Positions 1-10,135 of a stretch of DNA of 10,135 nt are shown in pieces (the stretch's first letter is position 1; each line of letters starts with the position of its first letter). The position numbers and the translations under genes are program-made. This DNA comes from Promethearchaeota archaeon (GTDB lineage Archaea; Asgardarchaeota; Lokiarchaeia; Sigyniarchaeales; SOKP01): NCBI GenBank assembly GCA_011364975.1, contig RDOE01000107.1:1-10135 (forward strand), written 5' to 3'. Below the pieces are notes generated by a model. It ran no database searches. It saw only the letters and a list, made by a program, of their open reading frames with translations, and was not told the DNA's origin.

Positions 1-791
1 ACAAACGCATTTGATAAGTATTGCGGGCCGGTACCCCAGTCATTAAAATAGACTCTTAATGTTCCTCCTGATAGTTGGTTATCCAGTATGGTTATATTTG
101 TAAACCGAGGGAAACGGTTATAACCATATGGGATATCGTAGGCAAAGGAATTTCCAAATCCAGGATATACATTAAGATATCCAAGAATTCCGTAACCCGG
201 AATACTAGGACCTAGAGGTCCTCGTAATTTTGTTACATTCCAGGACGCAGTTGCATAAGGAGCCCAATCACTTATACTCATCCAATAAAGCGGTCTATTA
301 CCAGTCACAGCTGAATCAACTGTACTTCCAAGACAAAAATTAATATTTCCCAAAATGACCATTTGCCGATCAAGATTCCATTTGCAAACTGTGGCGTTCC
401 AATCTGAGCCATCGTGAAATTTAACATTTTCTCTAAGCGTAATATCCATATAGTCTACTCCATCATAATTCATAAACCCAGCAGCGTTCATTTCATTTGG
501 TCGAGAATGGATCGTCCAGTTGGTTGCAAGTAATGGTACAAAATTATCATAATCTCCAGTTGGCGCTACATATGGTAACTCAAATAATCCTTCAAGAGCG
601 TTATACCTGAAATAATCCCCAGTACTTGCTCCAAAACAAACACCATCCCAATTGCCTATGGGGGCTGGTCCACAAGCTCCCACAGTGAAATTGGGCGTCT
701 CTTCTTGAGCCACAACCACTAAAGGTAAAACTGGAAACACCATAGAAATAATAAGCAGAGAAAAAATTAATCCTTTTGACCAATTTCTCAT
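1..791 (-). CDS. ABC transporter substrate-binding protein, family 5 (DppA/OppA-like); 5' part only, truncated by the window edge
   Basis: Hand translation of the minus strand from ATG at 791 (AAGGAG SD about 10 nt upstream) is open to position 1. It begins MRNWSKGLIFSLLIISMVFPVLPLVVVAQEE (signal-peptide-like) and contains EGLFE...VPLLATNW...ITLRENVKFHDGSDWNATVCKWNLDR, matching the family-5 SBP signature (LA..W...LR..VKFHDG..FNA..VK.S.DR). It is absent from the ORF track because it has no stop in the window. Confidence 0.93.
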   Translation of the reverse strand, partial: MRNWSKGLIFSLLIISMVFPVLPLVVVAQEETPNFTVGACGPAPIGNWDGVCFGASTGDYFRYNALEGLFELPYVAPTGDYDNFVPLLATNWTIHSRPNEMNAAGFMNYDGVDYMDITLRENVKFHDGSDWNATVCKWNLDRQMVILGNINFCLGSTVDSAVTGNRPLYWMSISDWAPYATASWNVTKLRGPLGPSIPGYGILGYLNVYPGFGNSFAYDIPYGYNRFPRFTNITILDNQLSGGTLRVYFNDWGTGPQYLSNAF

Positions 792-862: not shown

Positions 863-910
863 AATTTACGACGTAAATTTATTTAAAGCTTGTGGAATTA
901 TATATTTAAA
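863..910 (-). promoter_or_regulatory. Putative archaeal promoter plus palindromic operator for the SBP gene
   Basis: The minus strand reads acaaatg-TTTAAATAT(910-902)-N14-TTTAAATA(887-880)-AATTTACG-T-CGTAAATT(879-863). The 17-bp palindrome is perfect, and the same cassette recurs at 7209-7257. Confidence 0.75.
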
Positions 911-1022: not shown

Positions 1023-1559
1023 ATGTTGCAAGACAAAGAAAAACAATTTAAACCTGACAATAACAAGAAGAAAGGTAAAATAAAAATCGATTTTGGCCGC
1101 CAAGGTGGCACTTTTTTAGCTTATACACTTGTCTTACTAGGATATTATGGGCTTGTTGTTAACATCGTTATGGTTAATGAGTGGTTTTCTCTTACGGAAC
1201 AAACTTGGATAAGTTTTACTGAAATGGATAGAACAGTGTTATTTTGGACTCATGAAACGTATGTAGATACATTCTTTTTGCCTTTAATATTATTATTTGT
1301 TACTTGTTTTTTATTAACTTACAAAGAGGATATTCCGCACTATGGAATAAAAGCGTCAATCTGGCTTGTTCCTTTTATCATTCTTGAAGCGTTTATTTTC
1401 TATACATTCATGTTTGGTTTTAGTTTAGAGCCATTTATCCTACAATTTGGAAATTGGAACGGTTATCTCCATATTATTATTTTAATGGCAACCACGCTCT
1501 CTGGTGCTATAAGTGGTATGAAACTCAAACAATTAATTATATCAAAAAGAAAAATATAA
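1023..1559 (+). CDS. Hypothetical integral membrane protein (about 4 TM helices), first gene of the transporter operon
   Basis: 178-aa ORF with AGGT 8 nt upstream of ATG, a Lys-rich N-terminus, four hydrophobic stretches and a basic C-terminus. It ends 46 nt before the dppB-like gene on the same strand. No family recognised. Confidence 0.8.
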   Translation: MLQDKEKQFKPDNNKKKGKIKIDFGRQGGTFLAYTLVLLGYYGLVVNIVMVNEWFSLTEQTWISFTEMDRTVLFWTHETYVDTFFLPLILLFVTCFLLTYKEDIPHYGIKASIWLVPFIILEAFIFYTFMFGFSLEPFILQFGNWNGYLHIIILMATTLSGAISGMKLKQLIISKRKI

Positions 1560-1605
1560 TAAAAAAATTAAAACGATAAAATATCCAAAATAAGGGGAAA
1601 AAAAG

Positions 1606-2676
1606 ATGGCAAAACAACCAAAAAATATGATAAAATATATCATCAAACGGATATTAATGATGATTCCGATGTTGGTCTTAGTTCTAACTCTTTCTTGGCT
1701 CTTATCATATTTAATGGTACAACAAAATTTAGTTAATCCGGTTGCTGGTAGATTGGGTGCTACTCTTGATCCTGATATCATTGAAGCAGAATTACGGAGA
1801 ATTGGATACTATGATCCTTGGTTTGTTCAACTTGCTATATATTATAAGAATTTCTTCACAGGTAATTGGGGTCTCTCTTATAATATTATGCGAGATAAAC
1901 CCGTAATAGATTTAATATCAGAAATATTTCCAAGAACAATAGAATTAATGATAATCCCAATTATATTAAGTCCTATACTCGCAGTTAAACTTGGAATAGC
2001 TTCTGCAACCCATAAGGATAAATCAAAAGATGTAGGTGTTAGAACTATTGCAATCTTAGGAGCGGGCTTCCCGATTTTCTGGATTGCTGACATGATCCAA
2101 CGCTTTTTTGGGTACTATGTAAGTAATTTTACATATGAAAGCTTCGATATACCTGCATTTTTCGCAAATACTCCTGGATTAAGCCCGACCCCTCCACGTA
2201 TAACAGGATTTCGGATTATTGATAGCATACTAGCTAATAACCAAATTTACTTAATAGACACGATTATTCATTTGATACTGCCAGCTATATGTATAACTTT
2301 TGTCTCATTGGCGAGTATGACAAGACAAACGCGATCAAGCATGTTGGATGTTTTAAATCAAGATTATATCAGAACTGCTCGAGCTAAAGGTGTGTTAGAA
2401 CATGATGTAATAAACAAACATGCGATTCGCAACGCATTATTACCTGTCAGTAATCTTATTGTAGGAGGTACAGCGACTGCATTATTAGGCTCGTTTTTCA
2501 TAGAGGTTACGTTTAATTATAAAGGTTATGGCTATTACATGGTAATTTCTATATTAACAGGAGATTACCTAGTTACCCTCGGGCTCTTGGTATTTGCTAC
2601 CATAATAATCCTCACAGGGACTTTAGTAGCTGATGTTTTATATACCATCATTGACCCCCGAATTACATATACATAA
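1606..2676 (+). CDS. dppB: Peptide/nickel-family ABC transporter permease (DppB/OppB-like)
   Basis: N-terminal YIIKRILMMIP, DPWFVQLAIY...GNWGLS, FPRTIEL, HLILPA, EAA loop TRSSMLDVLNQDYIRTARAKG..KHAIRNAL and C-terminal ADVLYTIIDPRI. The symbol is family-level only. Confidence 0.95.
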   Translation: MAKQPKNMIKYIIKRILMMIPMLVLVLTLSWLLSYLMVQQNLVNPVAGRLGATLDPDIIEAELRRIGYYDPWFVQLAIYYKNFFTGNWGLSYNIMRDKPVIDLISEIFPRTIELMIIPIILSPILAVKLGIASATHKDKSKDVGVRTIAILGAGFPIFWIADMIQRFFGYYVSNFTYESFDIPAFFANTPGLSPTPPRITGFRIIDSILANNQIYLIDTIIHLILPAICITFVSLASMTRQTRSSMLDVLNQDYIRTARAKGVLEHDVINKHAIRNALLPVSNLIVGGTATALLGSFFIEVTFNYKGYGYYMVISILTGDYLVTLGLLVFATIIILTGTLVADVLYTIIDPRITYT

Positions 2677-2687
2677 AAATTGAGAGG

Positions 2688-3698
2688 TTGTTTAAAATAG
2701 CTGAACAAATTTTGAAAGAGAAAAAGGTAGAGGAGCGCACTCCTTCGGAATTCTCGAGAAAAGTGAAATTTCTTCGATTCTTAAAGTTCTATTTAATTCC
2801 TGGTTGGCGGGATCCAGACTTTTCTTTGCAAGAATATGAGATTGAAAAAGTAAAATCTAAAAGGAGATTGTTTCGACACCTTGTTAAACCTCTTACAATA
2901 ATAGGACTATTAATGATTTTATTTATTACTGTATTAGCTATATTTACACCTTGGCTGACAATCTATCCATTACAAGATCTAGTAGTACCAAATATTCCAC
3001 CTAGTCCACATGTGTTTGCTCCCCCGTCAGCAGAACATCCGTTAGGGACAACTTATAACGGATACGATGTTTTAGCTAGAATTATTTGGGGGGCTAGAAC
3101 TACAATTTTAACATCGTTGATCCCCGTAACAATATCCATTGGAGGGGGTCTTATTTTAGGCATTATTTCTGCGTATTTCGGTGGGGTTGTTGATTATCTT
3201 ATGATGCGCTTTGTAGACTTATTCTACGCTTTTCCAACACTGATACTCATTATCATAATTACTCCTCTAGTTGGTAGCGATTTATTAACTCTTCTTGTTA
3301 TTTATGGACTTCTTTTTATACCACTTAATATAAGGTTCATGCGATCCCTTGTTTTCCAAGTAAAGCAACTTGAATACGTCCAAGCCGCAAAAGTAGGCGG
3401 TGCGTCAAAGTTCACTGTAATGTTTAAACATATTTTACCAAACGCAATATCCCCTATGTTAATATCTTTTTTTGGAGGTGCCGCAATAGCAATTATAGGC
3501 TTAGCAGGTCTTGCGTTTATAGGATTTTCAGACAATACTGTAGCAAGTTGGGGTCTTGATATTTTATGGGCTCGAGGAAAATTTAGCAATATCAGCGCTG
3601 CTGTTTGGCCTGGATTGTTTATTGGAATTGCTGCCATAGGATATATACTCGTTGGAGACGGATTGCGGGATGCACTTGATCCAAGACTAAAATTATAA
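2688..3698 (+). CDS. dppC: Peptide/nickel-family ABC transporter permease (DppC/OppC-like)
   Basis: PPSAEHPLGTTYNGYDVLARIIWGARTT, MRFVDLFYAFP, EAA loop EYVQAAKVGGAS...KHILPN and C-terminal GDGLRDALDPR. The start is uncertain: TTG at 2688 abuts the GAGG SD, while ATA at 2697 has better spacing. The symbol is family-level only. Confidence 0.95.
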   Translation: MFKIAEQILKEKKVEERTPSEFSRKVKFLRFLKFYLIPGWRDPDFSLQEYEIEKVKSKRRLFRHLVKPLTIIGLLMILFITVLAIFTPWLTIYPLQDLVVPNIPPSPHVFAPPSAEHPLGTTYNGYDVLARIIWGARTTILTSLIPVTISIGGGLILGIISAYFGGVVDYLMMRFVDLFYAFPTLILIIIITPLVGSDLLTLLVIYGLLFIPLNIRFMRSLVFQVKQLEYVQAAKVGGASKFTVMFKHILPNAISPMLISFFGGAAIAIIGLAGLAFIGFSDNTVASWGLDILWARGKFSNISAAVWPGLFIGIAAIGYILVGDGLRDALDPRLKL

Positions 3699-3714
3699 AT
3701 AGGAGGGATCGAAC

Positions 3715-5673
3715 ATTTTAACTACAATATATCAAACGGAATTTGGATTAAATTACGGAAGAGCTATAATAGGGTCAATTTTTATTGCGGTTGCTTTATA
3801 TTTAATTTCAAATTTTATCAATAATCAAATTCCTGAGGAGCATCAACTTTCAAAAAAAGTGTTTAAAAAAAGTTCGGCAGTAATTTGTATTATATTATTA
3901 GGTATTATATTTGGTATTAAATCTCTTTTTGAAACTTTAGGATATTTTAATTACATATTTTTAATTTTCAATAATGATGCTGTATCATTCGCAATAATAA
4001 CAACACTATTTTACTTATTATATAAAAAAATGGTATTAAAGGGCAAAAGATTTGGAGCCTCAGAAGATGAATCCGTTAATAATCCATTTATGAAAATATA
4101 TAAAATATTTATTCTAATAACTTGGATAATTTCGATAATATTTATTTCAATTCCTCTTTTAGGGATTCAAAGGACTCAAACGATAGGACCAATAAAAGTT
4201 GACATTTTTTACCTTGGATTTATATGGGCAGGATTTACCGTTGGATTTGATATTCTCATCACAATTCTAATTAATAAGGTTCGTACAATTGAGAAGCAAA
4301 TTCCTGAGATACCTTTAAAATATGCTATGTATTCTGGGGGGCTAATCTCATTTGGAATTTGGTCAATACAATTAGTAATCTTTGAATTATATTTGAAAAG
4401 GTTATTTGGCATAATAGCATTTGATCAAGATATTCGAATATTAATTATTGTTATTAGCGGTCTTTATGCTGTCATATTTTATATATCATTGAAAAAGAAA
4501 TTTATGCCAAGTGCAAAGGAGAGGAGTGCGTTAAAACTCCAAAAAGCTTTAGAATTATTGAAAGATGAATCCTTAGAACTCTCTAAATTAAGCAGCAATC
4601 ACATTATTCTTAATGTGAAAGACCTTACCACATACTTTTATACAGAAGAGGGAGTCGTTCGTGCAGTTGAAAATGTTTCTTTTAAAATATTTGAAGGCGA
4701 AACTCTTGGTCTTGTAGGTGAAACTGGTTGCGGGAAATCGGTTACTGCATTATCGATTGTCCAACTAATACGTCCTCCAGGAAAAATAGAAAAAGGAAAT
4801 ATCTTATTCAGAGGAGAAGATTTATCTTTAAAATCGGAATCAGAGATCTTAAAATATCGTGGAAAAGATATAACTATGATTTTTCAAGATCCACTTAATT
4901 CACTTAATCCCGTTTTTAAGATAGGTAAACAAATATCGGAAGTATTTTTATTGCATATGGAAAATGAGCTACTGGTTGAAACTGCTAAATATCCTGATAA
5001 AAGTGTAAATAGTATCGCTCAGGAAAGGAGTGTAGCTCTTTTGAAAGATCTAAATATACCCCGTCCTGAAATAATTTTTGATAGATATCCACATGAATTA
5101 AGTGGTGGGATGCGACAAAGAGTTCAGATTGCGATGGCATTGGCATGCAGACCTAAATTACTCATTGCTGATGAGCCCACTACTGCGTTAGATGTTACAA
5201 TTCAGAACCAAATATTAAAACTGATGAAAGATCTACGTGTGAAATACAATACTAGTATATTATATATTACGCACGATTTAGGGATCATCTCTAAAATGTG
5301 TGATCGTGTTGCTGTAATGTACAGCGGATTTATTGTTGAATATGGAGATATAAAGAAGTTATTAACTAATCCTTATCATCCATATACGAGGGGACTTATA
5401 ACTTCTATTCCTGTTGTCGGAAAGAAGCAAACTAGACTTGAAGTTATACCGGGAATGGTCCCAAATCTAATTTATCCCCCTTCAGGATGCAGATTTCATC
5501 CTAGATGTAAATATTGTTTTGAGCCTTGTGATTCAATAGTTCCAAAAGAAAATGAGGTTGCGAAAGATTATTTTGTGGCATGTCATTTATATGATCCAGA
5601 ATATAAACCTTTAGCAGAAATAAGTATAAATAACGTAGAAGGTAAAAATGAGGTGGAGTATATCAATGAATAA
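3715..5673 (+). CDS. dppD: Peptide ABC transporter ATPase (DppD/OppD-like) fused to an N-terminal multi-TM domain
   Basis: Walker A GETGCGKS (4717-4740), Q-loop MIFQDP, signature LSGGMRQR, Walker B LLIADEPTTALD, H-loop ITHDL and C-terminal HPYT...GCRFHPRC...C...ACH. Roughly the first 260 aa are hydrophobic (about 7 TM). The ORF track starts at GTG 3859, but the frame is open from 3703 and AGGAGG (3701-3706) sits 8 nt before ATT at 3715, so the start given here is inferred. Confidence 0.92.
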   Translation: MLTTIYQTEFGLNYGRAIIGSIFIAVALYLISNFINNQIPEEHQLSKKVFKKSSAVICIILLGIIFGIKSLFETLGYFNYIFLIFNNDAVSFAIITTLFYLLYKKMVLKGKRFGASEDESVNNPFMKIYKIFILITWIISIIFISIPLLGIQRTQTIGPIKVDIFYLGFIWAGFTVGFDILITILINKVRTIEKQIPEIPLKYAMYSGGLISFGIWSIQLVIFELYLKRLFGIIAFDQDIRILIIVISGLYAVIFYISLKKKFMPSAKERSALKLQKALELLKDESLELSKLSSNHIILNVKDLTTYFYTEEGVVRAVENVSFKIFEGETLGLVGETGCGKSVTALSIVQLIRPPGKIEKGNILFRGEDLSLKSESEILKYRGKDITMIFQDPLNSLNPVFKIGKQISEVFLLHMENELLVETAKYPDKSVNSIAQERSVALLKDLNIPRPEIIFDRYPHELSGGMRQRVQIAMALACRPKLLIADEPTTALDVTIQNQILKLMKDLRVKYNTSILYITHDLGIISKMCDRVAVMYSGFIVEYGDIKKLLTNPYHPYTRGLITSIPVVGKKQTRLEVIPGMVPNLIYPPSGCRFHPRCKYCFEPCDSIVPKENEVAKDYFVACHLYDPEYKPLAEISINNVEGKNEVEYINE

Positions 5674-7069
5674 AACTCGTATTCTAAAAATAATCATTGG
5701 CTTGTCACTTATTTCAATGTACACAGTTTTGATAATAACAATAACGTATTACTTATTAGTGACCACCACTCCTCCTATGACCGTATTTATAATGGAAGAC
5801 TTTTTACTTTTTTTTAGTGTTGCTTACATTATTTCATTTTTTATCATTAACTGGGATGCTCGATCCCAATTAATTAGAGTGAAGCTCCATTTATATGAAA
5901 TTTCAGCACTTATTAGTACGGTCTTAATCTTTATTCCTTTACCAGAATTTATCTCAGGTAACTTTTGGGTATTTGTTATTATTTACAGTTTAATCTCAGG
6001 GATTATTAGTTTTGCTATTAAATATGTGACATTTAAAATAATTAAGGTTGAAAGATTTAGTGAAATCACTACTCTCAAACCAAGCAGGAATTTACTTGAA
6101 GTTAAAGTTCTTAGAGTACATTATCCTCTCCTAGGAGGTATTTTGAAAAGAAGAATAGGAGCTGTTAAAGCAGTTGATGGAGTTACATTTGATGTTAATA
6201 TTGGTGAAACAGTTGGATTAGTAGGAGAGAGCGGGTGTGGAAAAACAACTATCGCAAAAGCGATCCTAGGTTTAGTGGATATAACTAACGGAAAAATCCT
6301 CTTTCAAGACAAACCAATTCCTCCGGATTATTCATCTTATTTAAGGCAAAAGATTCAAATGATTTTCCAAGACCCTGATGCTTCATTGAATCCTCGTAAA
6401 AAAGTTGTTGACATCATAGCAGAGCCTCTCAAAAACCTTCTTGCTATATCTGATAAAATAAAACTCAGAAAAAGGGTTCTAGCATTATTAGAACAAGTAT
6501 CCTTAAAACGAGAACATATGGACAGATATCCTCACGAATTCTCAGGAGGACAAAAGCAAAGAATAGTTATAGCTAGAGCTTTAGCTTGCAATCCAGAATT
6601 GATAATTTTAGATGAACCTACATCCGCCCTTGATGTATCCGTTCAAGCACAAATTCTTAACCTGCTTAAAGATTTGCAAGGAACATATGGCTACGGATTT
6701 TTATTTATTACCCATAATTTAGCGGTTGTATCCCATGTTGCGGATCGTGTAGCTGTTATGTATCTTGGTAAATTTGTAGAGGTTGGAAGTAAGGAACAGA
6801 TTTTTTCAAATCCAACTCATCCCTATACCCGAGCCCTCCTCGCCTCGCGTTCTGAGATCAACCCTTACAATCAAGATATCAGTTTTGTTATTAAGGGAGA
6901 AGTCCCAAGCCCTATAGCTCCACCACCTGGTTGTACGTATAATCCACGCTGTACTTCTGAATTTCGCACAAAAGAGTGTGAATTAAATATTCCTCATAAG
7001 ATTGAAATTGAAGAAGGTCACTTTATATGGTGTAATAATCCACCGTCCTCTACACCGTCAAAAGTTTAA
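5666..7069 (+). CDS. dppF: Peptide ABC transporter ATPase (DppF/OppF-like) fused to an N-terminal 4-TM domain
   Basis: VKAVDGVTF, Walker A GESGCGKT, MIFQDP, FSGGQKQR, LIILDEPTSALDVSVQAQ, ITHNL and HPYT...GCTYNPRC...C...WC. I place the start at ATG 5666 (GAGGTGGAG SD at 5650-5658; 8-nt ATGAATAA overlap with the dppD stop) rather than 5648. Confidence 0.93.
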   Translation: MNKTRILKIIIGLSLISMYTVLIITITYYLLVTTTPPMTVFIMEDFLLFFSVAYIISFFIINWDARSQLIRVKLHLYEISALISTVLIFIPLPEFISGNFWVFVIIYSLISGIISFAIKYVTFKIIKVERFSEITTLKPSRNLLEVKVLRVHYPLLGGILKRRIGAVKAVDGVTFDVNIGETVGLVGESGCGKTTIAKAILGLVDITNGKILFQDKPIPPDYSSYLRQKIQMIFQDPDASLNPRKKVVDIIAEPLKNLLAISDKIKLRKRVLALLEQVSLKREHMDRYPHEFSGGQKQRIVIARALACNPELIILDEPTSALDVSVQAQILNLLKDLQGTYGYGFLFITHNLAVVSHVADRVAVMYLGKFVEVGSKEQIFSNPTHPYTRALLASRSEINPYNQDISFVIKGEVPSPIAPPPGCTYNPRCTSEFRTKECELNIPHKIEIEEGHFIWCNNPPSSTPSKV

Positions 7070-7202: not shown

Positions 7203-7259
7203 GAAAGTTTTAAATATTTTATTATACATACTTTTAAATAAATTTACGACGTAAATTTA
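7203..7259 (+). promoter_or_regulatory. Putative archaeal BRE/TATA promoter plus palindromic operator for the GRE gene
   Basis: gaaagt-TTTAAATAT(7209-7217)-N15-TTTAAATA(7233-7240), then the palindrome core. The perfect 21-bp palindrome TAAATTTACG-A-CGTAAATTTA spans 7239-7259 and ends 27 nt before ATG 7287. Confidence 0.78.
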
Positions 7260-7286
7260 ATTAATAATAAAAACAATTGTTAAATT

Positions 7287-9734
7287 ATGGTAGTTCAAGA
7301 TTTGAAGATGACCCCTCTTCAAGGGATACCTTCAGAGAGGGTCCGAAAGATTAGAGATAGAATGCTCTCTATGCCTCGAGAGCTTGATCTTGAGCGTGCT
7401 CGATGTTATACAAGAATATATAAACAAATGGAAGATGCTCCTCCTTGTATGAGGAATGTCAAAGCATTAGAAGAATTTTTACGCTGTCTACCAATAAGAA
7501 TTGATGAAGATGAGCTTCTCGTGGGTGTAAAATCTAGTAAAGTTAGAGCTGATCCAATAGAAATAGAACGGGGAATGCGTGTTAAACTTTTGGGACTTGT
7601 CGTTAGTGAAAAAATAGATCCAAAAGTTAAAGCGATGCTTATTTCAAAAATTTCTTTTATTAACCGATACGCACCTTTGACTGAAGAAGAAATGAAAGAG
7701 TTGAGGGATGAAATTCTGCCTTTCTGGGATGGAAGAACGGTAGCAGATAAAAAGATAGAAAATTGGAAAAAGGCGGGTTTAGTTGAGGATCCAAAGGGAC
7801 CTATCCCTTCAATGCTACTCATTAGTTTTGGGAGCGGTACTGATTTGTTTGCTGGTTCTTCGGGTCAAGGACATGTTATTCCAGGTTATAGGCGAGTTCT
7901 TAAAATGGGATTTCGAGGAATTGAAAAGATGGCGGAAGAGGGACTCGCCAAACTCAATGAGACAGATGAAAAGTATGACCAGCGCAAAGATTTTTATGAA
8001 TCAGTAATTGTTGCTGCACGAGCGGTTTGTGATTATTCCAATCGCTATGTTGATCTCGCAATAGAAATGGCGGAAAATGCATCAGAAACAAGAAAAGCTG
8101 AGCTGTTAGATATTGCTGAACGTGCAAGACGGGTACCTGCACTACCACCTAGAACGTTTATGGAAGCCCTTCAGTCAATTTGGTTTACGAATGTAGTGAT
8201 GGAGATGAGCTATGGTGAAGGGAATATATTCTCTCAAGGACGAGTTGATCAATATCTTTATCCATATTACGCAGATGACTTAGCAGAAGGTCGTATTACT
8301 TATGAGGAAGCGGTAGAAGCAATTGAGGAATATTTAGTTAAACTTTCTTCTGTTGTTATAGCCGGACAGAACAATGTAACTATTGGGGGATTAGATAAGG
8401 ATGGAAAGGATGCCACTAATGATGTATCTTACATGTTCCTCGAAGCCATTTCTAACGTAAAAAGTTTATTGAATACTTTATCAATAAGAATTTCTTCAAA
8501 GTCTCCCCGTGATTTTCTGAAAAGAACTCTTGAAGCTTTTAAATATACAGCTGGAATGGGAATTCATAATGATGAGGTCTTAGTACCACAACTTCATGAT
8601 ACAGGATATTCATTAGAAGATGCCCGAGATTATTCCATCGTTGGTTGCGTAGAACCACATGGCACAGGGAATGACTTCTCTTATACTGCAGGTAATGCAG
8701 TTCAGATTTCAATCCTTTTAAACATGGCTTTAAATGAAGGCCGTACACTTTTATCAGGAAAAGAGACTGTTGGGGCAAAAACACCCCCGGCTAGTACTTT
8801 CAAAACTTTTGAAGATGTAAAAAAGGCGTTTGTAGACCAACTTAAATTCGCGATAGATCTTTGCGTAAGAAAGGCTGAGATAAAAGATAAAACATTTGCA
8901 GAATATTTGCCTTCTCCGTTACTTTCTTCTTCAATAGAGGGATGTCTCGAAAGTGGAATGGATGCAACTCGAAATGGAGCTAAATATAATAATAACCCAA
9001 TGGGCTCACAAGGGCTTGGTACTGTGGTTGATTCCTTAGCAGCGATTCGGTGGGCAGTATTTGAAGAAAAATTAGTTACCATGGAAGAATTAGTAAACTT
9101 CATGAATAAAAATTTCAAGGGGGCCGAAGAACTTCGGGAAAAATTACGAAATAAAGCTCCCAAATTTGGTAATGGTGATGAAAGAACCGATGAATTAGGC
9201 AGATGGGTAGCTCAAACTCTATGTGATCTTACAAGACATTATAAAGCGAGAGGCGGAGATGGTATCTATCATAATTGCCTTGTATCTTCTGGAACACAGA
9301 TTATAGAGGGTAATTCATTAGGTGCAACCGCAGATGGTAGATTAAAAGGTGAACCCGTAGCGAACGGTATCTCTCCTTCAAATGGCACAGAAAAGAATGG
9401 CCTTACGATGACACTCAAATCAGTAGCTTATGCGACAGCTGAACCTCATTTAACTAATGGAGCATCATTTAATATTAGATTAAATCCAAGTATTCTTCAA
9501 ACAGATGAAGGCCTCGATCAATTAACGTCAATAGTAGAGGCATACTTAGACTTAGGAGGACGAGAGCTTCAAATAAATCCAATAAGTTCAGAAACTCTTA
9601 GAGACGCGCAAGCTCATCCAGAGAATTATCCTGACTTATCAGTTAAAGTAACAGGTTACTCCGCTCGATTCATTGATTTAACAAAAGAGCTTCAAGATGA
9701 TATCATCGCAAGAACAGTATTTAATGAAGTATAG
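7287..9734 (+). CDS. Glycyl radical enzyme (PFL2/glycerol dehydratase-like family), substrate unknown
   Basis: 815 aa with ERARCYT...LPIRIDEDELLVG, GHVIPGY (His196), PPRTFMEALQ..WF, GRVDQYLYPYY, a Cys loop IVGCVEP (Cys454), GATADGR..G.P.A.G.SP and a C-terminal Gly loop HPENYPDLSVKVTGYSARF (Gly790). It has a single active-site Cys, so it is not canonical PflB. Confidence 0.95.
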   Translation: MVVQDLKMTPLQGIPSERVRKIRDRMLSMPRELDLERARCYTRIYKQMEDAPPCMRNVKALEEFLRCLPIRIDEDELLVGVKSSKVRADPIEIERGMRVKLLGLVVSEKIDPKVKAMLISKISFINRYAPLTEEEMKELRDEILPFWDGRTVADKKIENWKKAGLVEDPKGPIPSMLLISFGSGTDLFAGSSGQGHVIPGYRRVLKMGFRGIEKMAEEGLAKLNETDEKYDQRKDFYESVIVAARAVCDYSNRYVDLAIEMAENASETRKAELLDIAERARRVPALPPRTFMEALQSIWFTNVVMEMSYGEGNIFSQGRVDQYLYPYYADDLAEGRITYEEAVEAIEEYLVKLSSVVIAGQNNVTIGGLDKDGKDATNDVSYMFLEAISNVKSLLNTLSIRISSKSPRDFLKRTLEAFKYTAGMGIHNDEVLVPQLHDTGYSLEDARDYSIVGCVEPHGTGNDFSYTAGNAVQISILLNMALNEGRTLLSGKETVGAKTPPASTFKTFEDVKKAFVDQLKFAIDLCVRKAEIKDKTFAEYLPSPLLSSSIEGCLESGMDATRNGAKYNNNPMGSQGLGTVVDSLAAIRWAVFEEKLVTMEELVNFMNKNFKGAEELREKLRNKAPKFGNGDERTDELGRWVAQTLCDLTRHYKARGGDGIYHNCLVSSGTQIIEGNSLGATADGRLKGEPVANGISPSNGTEKNGLTMTLKSVAYATAEPHLTNGASFNIRLNPSILQTDEGLDQLTSIVEAYLDLGGRELQINPISSETLRDAQAHPENYPDLSVKVTGYSARFIDLTKELQDDIIARTVFNEV

Positions 9735-9817: not shown

Positions 9818-10135
9818 TTAACGAGTTAAACCAGACCACTTAACATTTCTAGCACCAGTATTTGATGCAATTTCAAGAAATTTATCCATCTCCTCTACTG
9901 TCATTAAACGCTCATCCTTTAAAATCCATGTTATACCTAGTCTTGAATATTTTATTTCGCAGAGTTTATTGAAACTTAATAAGTCCCATTTATCAGGTAT
10001 GTTATTTAATTCATTAACAATAAATTGTCCAATTCTTTTTATATTCTCTTCTGTTGCCGTGTAATGGGGTATTATCGGTGTTCTTATCCACATTATTTTT
10101 CCGTTTTCTTTGACATATTCAGCCATCCATTTAGC
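9818..10135 (-). CDS. Glycyl-radical enzyme activating enzyme (radical SAM, PflA/PflC-like); 3' part only
   Basis: The frame stays open to the window end (..AKWMAEYVK..), so ATG 10126 is probably internal. The sequence MWIRTPIIPHYTATEENIKRIGQFI...WDLLSFNKLCEIKYSRLG matches the C-terminal activase pattern (IRxPxIPgxnd.xeni...eLLpyh.lg..KY..LG). It lies next to a GRE. The CxxxCxxC motif would be outside the window. Confidence 0.85.
   Translation of the reverse strand, partial: AKWMAEYVKENGKIMWIRTPIIPHYTATEENIKRIGQFIVNELNNIPDKWDLLSFNKLCEIKYSRLGITWILKDERLMTVEEMDKFLEIASNTGARNVKWSGLTR

Follow-up and report, generated by a model that had tools for sequence, protein, structure and literature searches.

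Two promoters on one contig of a Promethearchaeota archaeon, the first preceding a solute-binding protein (SBP) gene and the second a glycyl-radical enzyme (GRE) gene, carry a palindromic site that is unique in its genome and is conserved in its arms, spacing, and position across Asgard archaea, where its occurrence is limited to the promoters of GRE, SBP, and TetR genes. Very probably, this dyad would be the specific protein-binding operator of some factor, and we favor, with less assurance, a TetR-family repressor linked to the same gene cluster as the protein that would bind it. From the sequence comparison, we infer TetR as the binder, repression as its effect, and a ligand as the agent of relief. 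In the proposed mechanism, a homodimer of the TetR-family repressor would occupy both palindromes, with the operator, TAAATTTAC-N3-GTAAATTTA, beginning within, or straight after, the TATA box; the bound dimer would block TBP/TFB or RNA polymerase at the SBP and GRE promoters, and a small-molecule ligand, presumably the substrate of the pathway or an intermediate, would free the promoter from the repressor.

Gene content of the window

The window, that is, the whole stretch of DNA analyzed here, is an entire contig of 10,135 bases (C14) from a genome of 3,743,160 bases, with 30.6% G+C and 200 contigs. The nearest relatives of the host are Promethearchaeota MAGs (Lokiarchaeota-type Asgard archaea), and its genome contains a TBP gene. 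The first target gene (3..791, minus strand) encodes the N-terminal part of an Opp/Dpp-type solute-binding protein (SBP_bac_5) and is truncated by the contig start; its Pfam score is under the curated cut-off (27.3 versus 32.4 bits), and its full-length orthologues, of 725 to 770 residues, match SBP_bac_5. Divergently from it runs a transporter operon (1023..7069, plus strand) composed of a 178-residue membrane protein (1023-1559), which is the first gene of the permease operon, OppB (1606-2676), OppC (2688-3698), OppD (3859-5673), and OppF (5648-7069). The second target gene (7287..9734, plus strand) encodes a GRE of 815 residues with PFL-like and Gly_radical domains, for which no equivalog cut-off of NCBIfam is reached. 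Finally, the C-terminal 105 residues of a GRE-activating radical-SAM enzyme (activase) are encoded at 9818..10135 on the minus strand; the contig end truncates this gene, and all its activase-family matches are under the cut-offs because it is a fragment. Contigs from two public DNA runs reach 918 to 965 nt past position 10135, and the interruption of the activase gene is therefore due to an assembly gap rather than to a true terminus. A DNA-binding regulator is absent from the eight ORFs of the window, in agreement with the first-pass annotation, which had stated that no regulator gene lies there.

With regard to the transporter, the 178-residue membrane protein has no match in Pfam or NCBIfam and is kept in the close clade (178-180 residues in G012, G042, L078, L095, and L108); other loci lack this gene and have OppB as the first of the operon. 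The OppD- and OppF-type ATPases are extended at the N terminus by about 240 and 145 residues, respectively, and the OppD extension has many hydrophobic, membrane-like stretches. Because long ORFs recur in the relatives (604-658 residues for OppD and 432-582 for OppF), these N termini are probably genuine and not a start-codon artefact.

The two putative operator cassettes

Site 1 (AATTTACGACGTAAATT, 863..879, extended dyad 861-881) precedes the SBP start codon (791, minus strand) by 71 nt, and site 2, with the same sequence (7241..7257, extended dyad 7239-7259), precedes the GRE start codon (7287) by 29 nt. Each site is abutted by a proximal TATA-like box, TTTAAATA, at 880..887 on the minus strand for the SBP promoter and at 7233..7240 on the plus strand for the GRE promoter, and both are candidate TATA boxes; at site 1, the last two bases of this box are part of the 21-bp dyad. 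Also, a distal TATA-like box, TTTAAATAT, is present at 902..910 on the minus strand, with the purine-rich flank acaaatg, and at 7209..7217 on the plus strand, with the BRE-like flank agaaagt, as an alternative TATA/BRE of the SBP and GRE promoters, respectively.

The description of the cassettes made in the first-pass annotation was reproduced. The 25-mers at 887-863 (minus strand) and 7233-7257 (plus strand) share 24 of 25 positions, the centre base alone differing because the cassettes face opposite ways; a TTTAAATAT box precedes each copy, with a gap of 14 nt for 910-902 (minus strand) and 15 nt for 7209-7217 (plus strand), and each cassette is oriented toward its own gene, SBP or GRE. Alignment of the two regions shows that their likeness extends from the distal box to ~10 nt beyond the palindrome, which corresponds to ~65 nt, and is absent outside. 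Contigs of near-identical strains from four DNA runs bridge both sites, with no cassette difference among the matches listed, a result to which no weight is given. The palindrome itself, however, had been drawn as AATTTACG-N-CGTAAATT, whereas the conserved dyad is AATTTAC-N3-GTAAATT, with three centre bases that vary among orthologues (GAC, TGT, TGC, TCC, ATA, and others). Comparison among relatives extends the dyad to 21 bp, with 9-nt arms that are conserved and a 3-nt centre that is free; T1 and A21 are unchanged in 49 of 49 aligned sites, and the best-kept positions of the arms are the C and the G, while the centre drifts.

Rarity of the dyad in the host genome

Allowing three mismatches, the window contains two matches against 0.12 expected, and two or more were obtained in none of 200 shuffles. 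In the 3,743,160-base genome, AATTTAC-N3-GTAAATT occurs exactly twice, both times in the window, which upholds the earlier claim of specificity to these two promoters; as a genome-wide control, 25 palindromes with scrambled arms were searched for, and none had more than one exact match. When mismatches are allowed, the genome holds 7 matches with up to one (2-26 in controls) and 140 with up to two (71-331 in controls), and the pattern of the first-pass annotation, with up to two mismatches, is found at 4 places versus 13 for the reversed control. A chance origin of the two cassettes is excluded.

With the weight matrix described below, both window sites score 22.9, jointly the highest in the genome, and 16 other matches score at least 13.5, 12 of them intragenic. 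A wider regulon is not evident in the assembled genome from the relaxed-consensus and matrix scans, whose matches are at chance level and mostly intragenic. Likewise, no copy of the operator is found near the start of the divergent Opp operon, the matrix scan of the window at a score of at least 5 returning the two known sites only.

Conservation among close relatives and across Asgard archaea

GRE homologues are present in 41 of 42 genomes of the genus, and an orthologue with 89-92% identity is found only in G052, G012, and G042. These three genomes all keep one site before the GRE gene and one before the SBP gene, with unchanged arms and with the centres GAC, TGT, and TCC for GRE, and GAC and GAT for SBP (plus strand). 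In the alignments of the intergenic regions (5 and 7 genomes), the longest invariant run covers the arms together with the abutting box, variation affects the three bases of the centre, and nothing is conserved upstream of the distal box. The remaining exact matches in the genus correspond to a coding stretch that is conserved in an unrelated gene, to a few single matches, and to one intergenic site in G002, located between an SBP_bac_5 gene and an operon of a small ORF and OppB. The exact pattern of the first-pass annotation, with up to one mismatch, also falls in the relatives mostly within the coding sequence of an unrelated gene, in a conserved part (L007, L009-L011); therefore, it was the centre and not the arms that was relaxed in the searches.

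A scan of species-representative genomes gave 62 loci, 38 of them from Asgard MAGs (L076-L113, GRE 69-92% identical) and the others bacterial (GRE 31-39% identical); some of the 38 probably come from the same genomes as those of the genus set and are not independent of them, and many loci belong to related genomes, so that the counts given here overstate the number of independent events. Gene calls in the locus counts are the longest ORFs. Thirty GRE promoters were compared, that of the window and those of 29 Asgard loci in which 80 nt or more of upstream sequence is available; in 23 of them the dyad, with up to three mismatches, starts at -44 to -48 from the GRE ATG, and the remaining 7, three of which are those of L111-L113, have other sequences at this position.

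A symmetrised weight matrix was built from these 23 sites and used to scan the 38 loci (563,947 nt) with a threshold of 13.5. The scan returned 46 matches, of which 46 are outside ORFs of at least 100 residues and 45 are located 15-80 nt before an ORF start. For 100 control matrices with scrambled arms, differing at three or more positions, the same three counts average 2.9, 0.96, and 0.35, with maxima of 15, 7, and 4. The matches comprise 21 training sites and 25 others (8 before GRE genes, 10 before SBP genes, and 7 before TetR genes), and they sort into three promoter classes. The GRE class (n = 29) lies 28-31 nt before GRE genes and joins the 21 training sites with the 8 new ones, including those of tandem second GRE paralogues; the SBP class (n = 10) lies 50-70 nt before SBP genes, and the TetR class (n = 7, in 6 loci) lies 20-42 nt before genes of 244-247 residues. 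In the first-pass annotation, the cassette was read as an operator of the dimeric-repressor type shared by two promoters, and this reading is supported by the conservation of the dyad, its genome-wide rarity, and its promoter-only placement in relatives.

Some loci deserve a separate description. Across the genus, up to 8 GRE matches per genome are found (many paralogues); tandem arrays of 3-4 full-length GRE genes are present in L093 (3566-14530) and L095 (6854-14530), and several tandem copies in L082, L084, L091, and L101 have an operator copy of their own. The most distant loci, L111-L113 (GRE 69% identity), have a different, degenerate dyad, e.g., AATGAAT-AGC-GTTCATT, straight after the TATA box and 25-35 nt (about 26 nt) before the GRE ATG, in a leaderless-type layout. 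In L112, a TetR-like ORF with 40% identity lies divergently upstream, and in L111 a fusion of activase and SCP2 domains adjoins an AMP-binding ligase gene.

A cluster-linked TetR protein as candidate regulator

All six genes behind the TetR-class sites match Pfam TetR_N, and these genes of 244-247 residues adjoin the GRE-activase operon divergently. In G012 and G042, the layout consists of the GRE gene, followed on the opposite strand by the activase, an aldehyde:ferredoxin oxidoreductase (AOR), and a Fe-alcohol dehydrogenase (ADH), and then by the TetR gene. In the four clusters that were annotated along their length, the TetR gene is the only regulator common to all four and the last conserved gene of the cluster, the genes beyond it being different between the loci; the other regulators in these clusters are a FUR gene at the end of the L089 locus and a winged-helix-glycoside hydrolase fusion in L087. 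Among the length-annotated loci, the TetR_N domain was confirmed in both TetR proteins tested.

Of the 38 Asgard loci, 17 contain a homologue of the G012 TetR, and in 10 of these 17 the best upstream match is located at -46 to -68 from the TetR ATG (score 10.5-17.6), mostly at -46, which is the distance of the dyad at the GRE genes. The operator copy before the TetR gene reaches 13.5 or more in 6 loci and is weaker in 4 more. For the clade nearest to the window (G012, G042, G052, L078, L088, L089, and L106), the best scores before the TetR gene are no higher than 4.4, and therefore the autoregulation argument rests on more distant loci. In 4 of 9 loci, the paralogous TetRs of the genus (60-67% identical) also have related dyads, AATATAC-N3-RTATAWATT, located ~80 nt upstream, with scores of 11.1-14.6 in L071-L073 and L075 and a weaker form (5.1) in L068 and L069; the AATATAC arm variant is found at GRE promoters too.

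The helix-turn-helix is mostly invariant across 27 aligned TetR proteins, including the YNY and SKRELWIAIR stretches. No signal of covariation between the recognition helix and the operator was found, since the helix-turn-helix hardly varies and different forms of the operator occur side by side in the same genome. The model of the TetR protein (mean pLDDT 73) matches solved TetR-family repressors with 13-19% identity, the best fold matches being TetRs of the fatty-acid/acyl-CoA type (6azh, FasR, and FadR of Bacillus), which gives a weak hint of a ligand of this type.

Because the contig stops within the activase gene, the cluster TetR is missing from both the window and the assembly. For the TetR, the AOR, the ADH, and the N-terminal part of the activase, the host assembly contains only paralogue-level matches, located on other contigs (52-66% identity versus 92% for the GRE), and the gene cluster of the window probably continues in unassembled DNA. 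Besides G012 itself, TetR orthologues with 79-82% identity are found only in G042 and G052. The TetR paralogue of the host, on contig C72 (1248-1979), is 66% identical, has the same recognition helix, groups with the paralogue clade, and is located in a different neighbourhood with no clear site upstream; a broken TetR copy is present on C65.

The strongest competitor of the TetR reading, which we consider unlikely and still well ahead of the others, is that the dyad would be the operator of a different dimeric transcription factor encoded elsewhere, and that the TetR protein would control another element, e.g., AATAGCTATAGTCTATT, between the TetR and alcohol-dehydrogenase genes. Consistent with this, the TetR promoter of the closest clade lacks the dyad and has another conserved, partly palindromic element, and L100 and L103, which extend for 9 kb or more downstream, have the GRE site with no TetR gene within reach (~10 kb); L080, which is titled as the same MAG as L103, does contain a TetR gene. 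On the contrary, no other regulator is common to the four length-annotated clusters, the dyad precedes TetR genes in 6 loci, and related dyads are found at the paralogous TetRs, which argues for the TetR protein as the binder. The linkage between the TetR gene and the site is in part a by-product of their common gene cluster.

Two further elements were observed in the neighbourhood of the TetR genes. The first, TTTTAATAGCTRTMGTCTATTTATT, is conserved between the Fe-ADH and TetR genes in L046 (8770-8800, from G012) and also in G042 and G052, and includes an imperfect dyad, AATAG-N7-CTATT; near it, a perfect AGTGTTG-N5-CAACACT is present in G012 alone. The second, AAAGTACTTGAA, holds the self-complementary AAGTACTT and is conserved ~15-30 nt upstream of the TetR-gene operator in L080, L091, L092, L101, L107, and L110, being not present at GRE or SBP promoters.

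Promoter geometry and mode of action

The abutting box is found in all three promoter classes. For example, TTTAAATA or TATAAATA occupies the proximal-box position in 12 of 12 SBP-class sites, and the consensus TaTAAATA lies immediately 5' of the dyad in the 29 GRE-class sites. The distal box is conserved in most SBP-class promoters, with its 5' half replaced in L079, and a box at the distal distance is kept in most GRE and SBP promoters and is lacking in those of the TetR class; its BRE-like GAAA flank is the better one. The archaeal TATA box is centred ~26 nt before the start site. If the abutting box acts as TATA, the dyad would lie at about -22 to -6, with predicted starts near 7263 and 857; if the distal box does, the dyad would lie at about +1 to +17, with predicted starts near 7240 and 880, as expected in the first-pass annotation. 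The genome-wide profile of TATA-like boxes is broad, covering -90 to -50 with a minor peak at -30, and is compatible with either box. We lean modestly toward the abutting box as the likely TATA because it is present in the three classes, because the TetR class has no distal box, and because L111-L113 show a TATA-then-dyad arrangement with leaderless spacing. Either choice gives, on this analysis, the predicted geometry of repression.

The position of the start site also bears on whether the palindrome would work at the RNA level, with the first 19-21 nt of both mRNAs forming a 5' hairpin that affects stability or translation. Starts near 7240 and 880, as the better BRE-like flank of the distal box would favor, make the dyad the beginning of the transcript, and the 21-mer folds with -3.6 kcal/mol (z = -3.2). 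Nonetheless, the A-U-rich stem is weak, with z of only -0.3 to -1.6 in a longer context. In the pairing test (49 aligned sites, 33 distinct), pairing cells amount to 91.6% versus 91.4% in shuffles, and the covariation score is 0.050 versus 0.044, with 144 of 500 shuffles at least as high. Moreover, for the two variable pairs, 10 and 8 of the 33 distinct sequences are unpaired against 1 compensatory change each; arm changes thus mostly break the pairing, as would be seen for two independently drifting half-sites and not for a structured RNA. In the TetR-class and L111-L113 promoters, which have the abutting TATA only, the dyad would not be transcribed, and no Rfam match is present in the window. 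In consequence, the dyad looks like a protein site and not an RNA stem, and a role of the hairpin is very unlikely.

Similarly improbable is that the TetR protein binds the dyad as an activator or a dual regulator. The sequence by itself is compatible with either sign of control; on the other hand, in all the promoter classes the site adjoins or overlaps the TATA box and is situated at the start site or ahead of it. Such an arrangement is the one used by archaeal repressors. In addition, the characterized archaeal TetR, FadR(Sa), acts as a repressor (PMC6449355).

The least credible possibility is a general core-promoter feature (an A/T-rich proximal element or an initiator) or a relic of promoter duplication with no dedicated factor, for although the region is A/T-rich, has two TATA-like boxes, and belongs to a genome of 30.6% G+C, a general element is expected to be common, yet only 2 copies exist in 3.74 Mb, the C and G of the arms are best kept while the centre drifts, and the same dyad precedes three unrelated gene classes across Asgard lineages.

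A broader version of the TetR-repressor proposal, which we advance tentatively and hold to be a little less than an even bet, is that one TetR subfamily with a near-invariant helix-turn-helix and one 21-bp dyad would form an Asgard-wide regulon that switches on a family of uncharacterised GRE paralogues together with their own Opp-type importer. In this version, the outer bases of the operator would double as the 3' end of the TATA box, so that repressor and TBP contend for the same base pairs.

Comparison with known systems and significance

The closest system found is FadR(Sa) of Sulfolobus acidocaldarius, an archaeal TetR repressor that is encoded within its own target cluster and has four semi-palindromic genomic sites, from which acyl-CoA releases it (PMC6449355). 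The present case is alike in the archaeal TetR family, the cluster-encoded candidate, and the few semi-palindromic sites, and the nearest solved relatives of the Asgard TetR, in sequence and fold, are also of the fatty-acid/acyl-CoA type, as FadR(Sa) is; it differs in the Asgard lineage, in the motif, and in having a GRE and an Opp-type SBP as targets. The case would join the FadR(Sa)-like kind with a new lineage, motif, and targets. In the literature on Asgard TetRs, regulons, or GREs, nothing closer than FadR(Sa) was found, and the literature search returned no published description of the palindrome or of any Asgard regulator/operator pair.

In the case of bacterial TetR/tetO, a dimer binds a dyad of ~15-21 bp with a centre of odd length, and the regulator gene adjoins the target operon, often divergently, with an operator in its own promoter. 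In 6 Asgard loci, the dyad, the adjoining divergent regulator gene, and the own-promoter operator are all present. However, the Asgard promoters are of the TATA/BRE type served by TBP/TFB, and the operator would compete with those or with the polymerase, not with sigma-70; in the nearest clade, moreover, the activase-AOR-ADH operon lies between the regulator gene and the targets, and the regulator gene lacks a self-operator. Archaeal repressors that act at or just after the TATA box (MDR1, Phr, and TrmB-type) have a palindrome between TATA and start or across the start, and the initiation complex is blocked. They belong to other protein families and bind other motifs, and the comparison with them is by position only.

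No known prokaryotes are closer to eukaryotes than the Asgard archaea, of which very few have been cultured. If the broader proposal is true, this would be their first bench-testable transcription factor/operator pair. A defined operator with a candidate repressor would give a direct route to the substrate biology of orphan GREs, as the ligand of the repressor is expected to be the substrate or an intermediate of the pathway. Asgard GREs have been discussed as possible alkyl/benzyl-succinate synthases (PMC8163825, in the part consulted, which does not discuss their regulation), and the ligand would show what these proposed synthases really act on.

Finally, the site would serve as a sequence tag for other pathway genes in any Asgard genome. 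In the host, an intergenic match at G000:C95:14633-14649 (AATTACCGTTGTAAATT), with a matrix score of 14.6, lies 46 nt before an ORF of 397 residues, the spacing seen at GRE and TetR genes. This ORF matches Fe-alcohol dehydrogenase with 30% identity, and the site is possibly a third member, though a weak one, of the regulon in the host.
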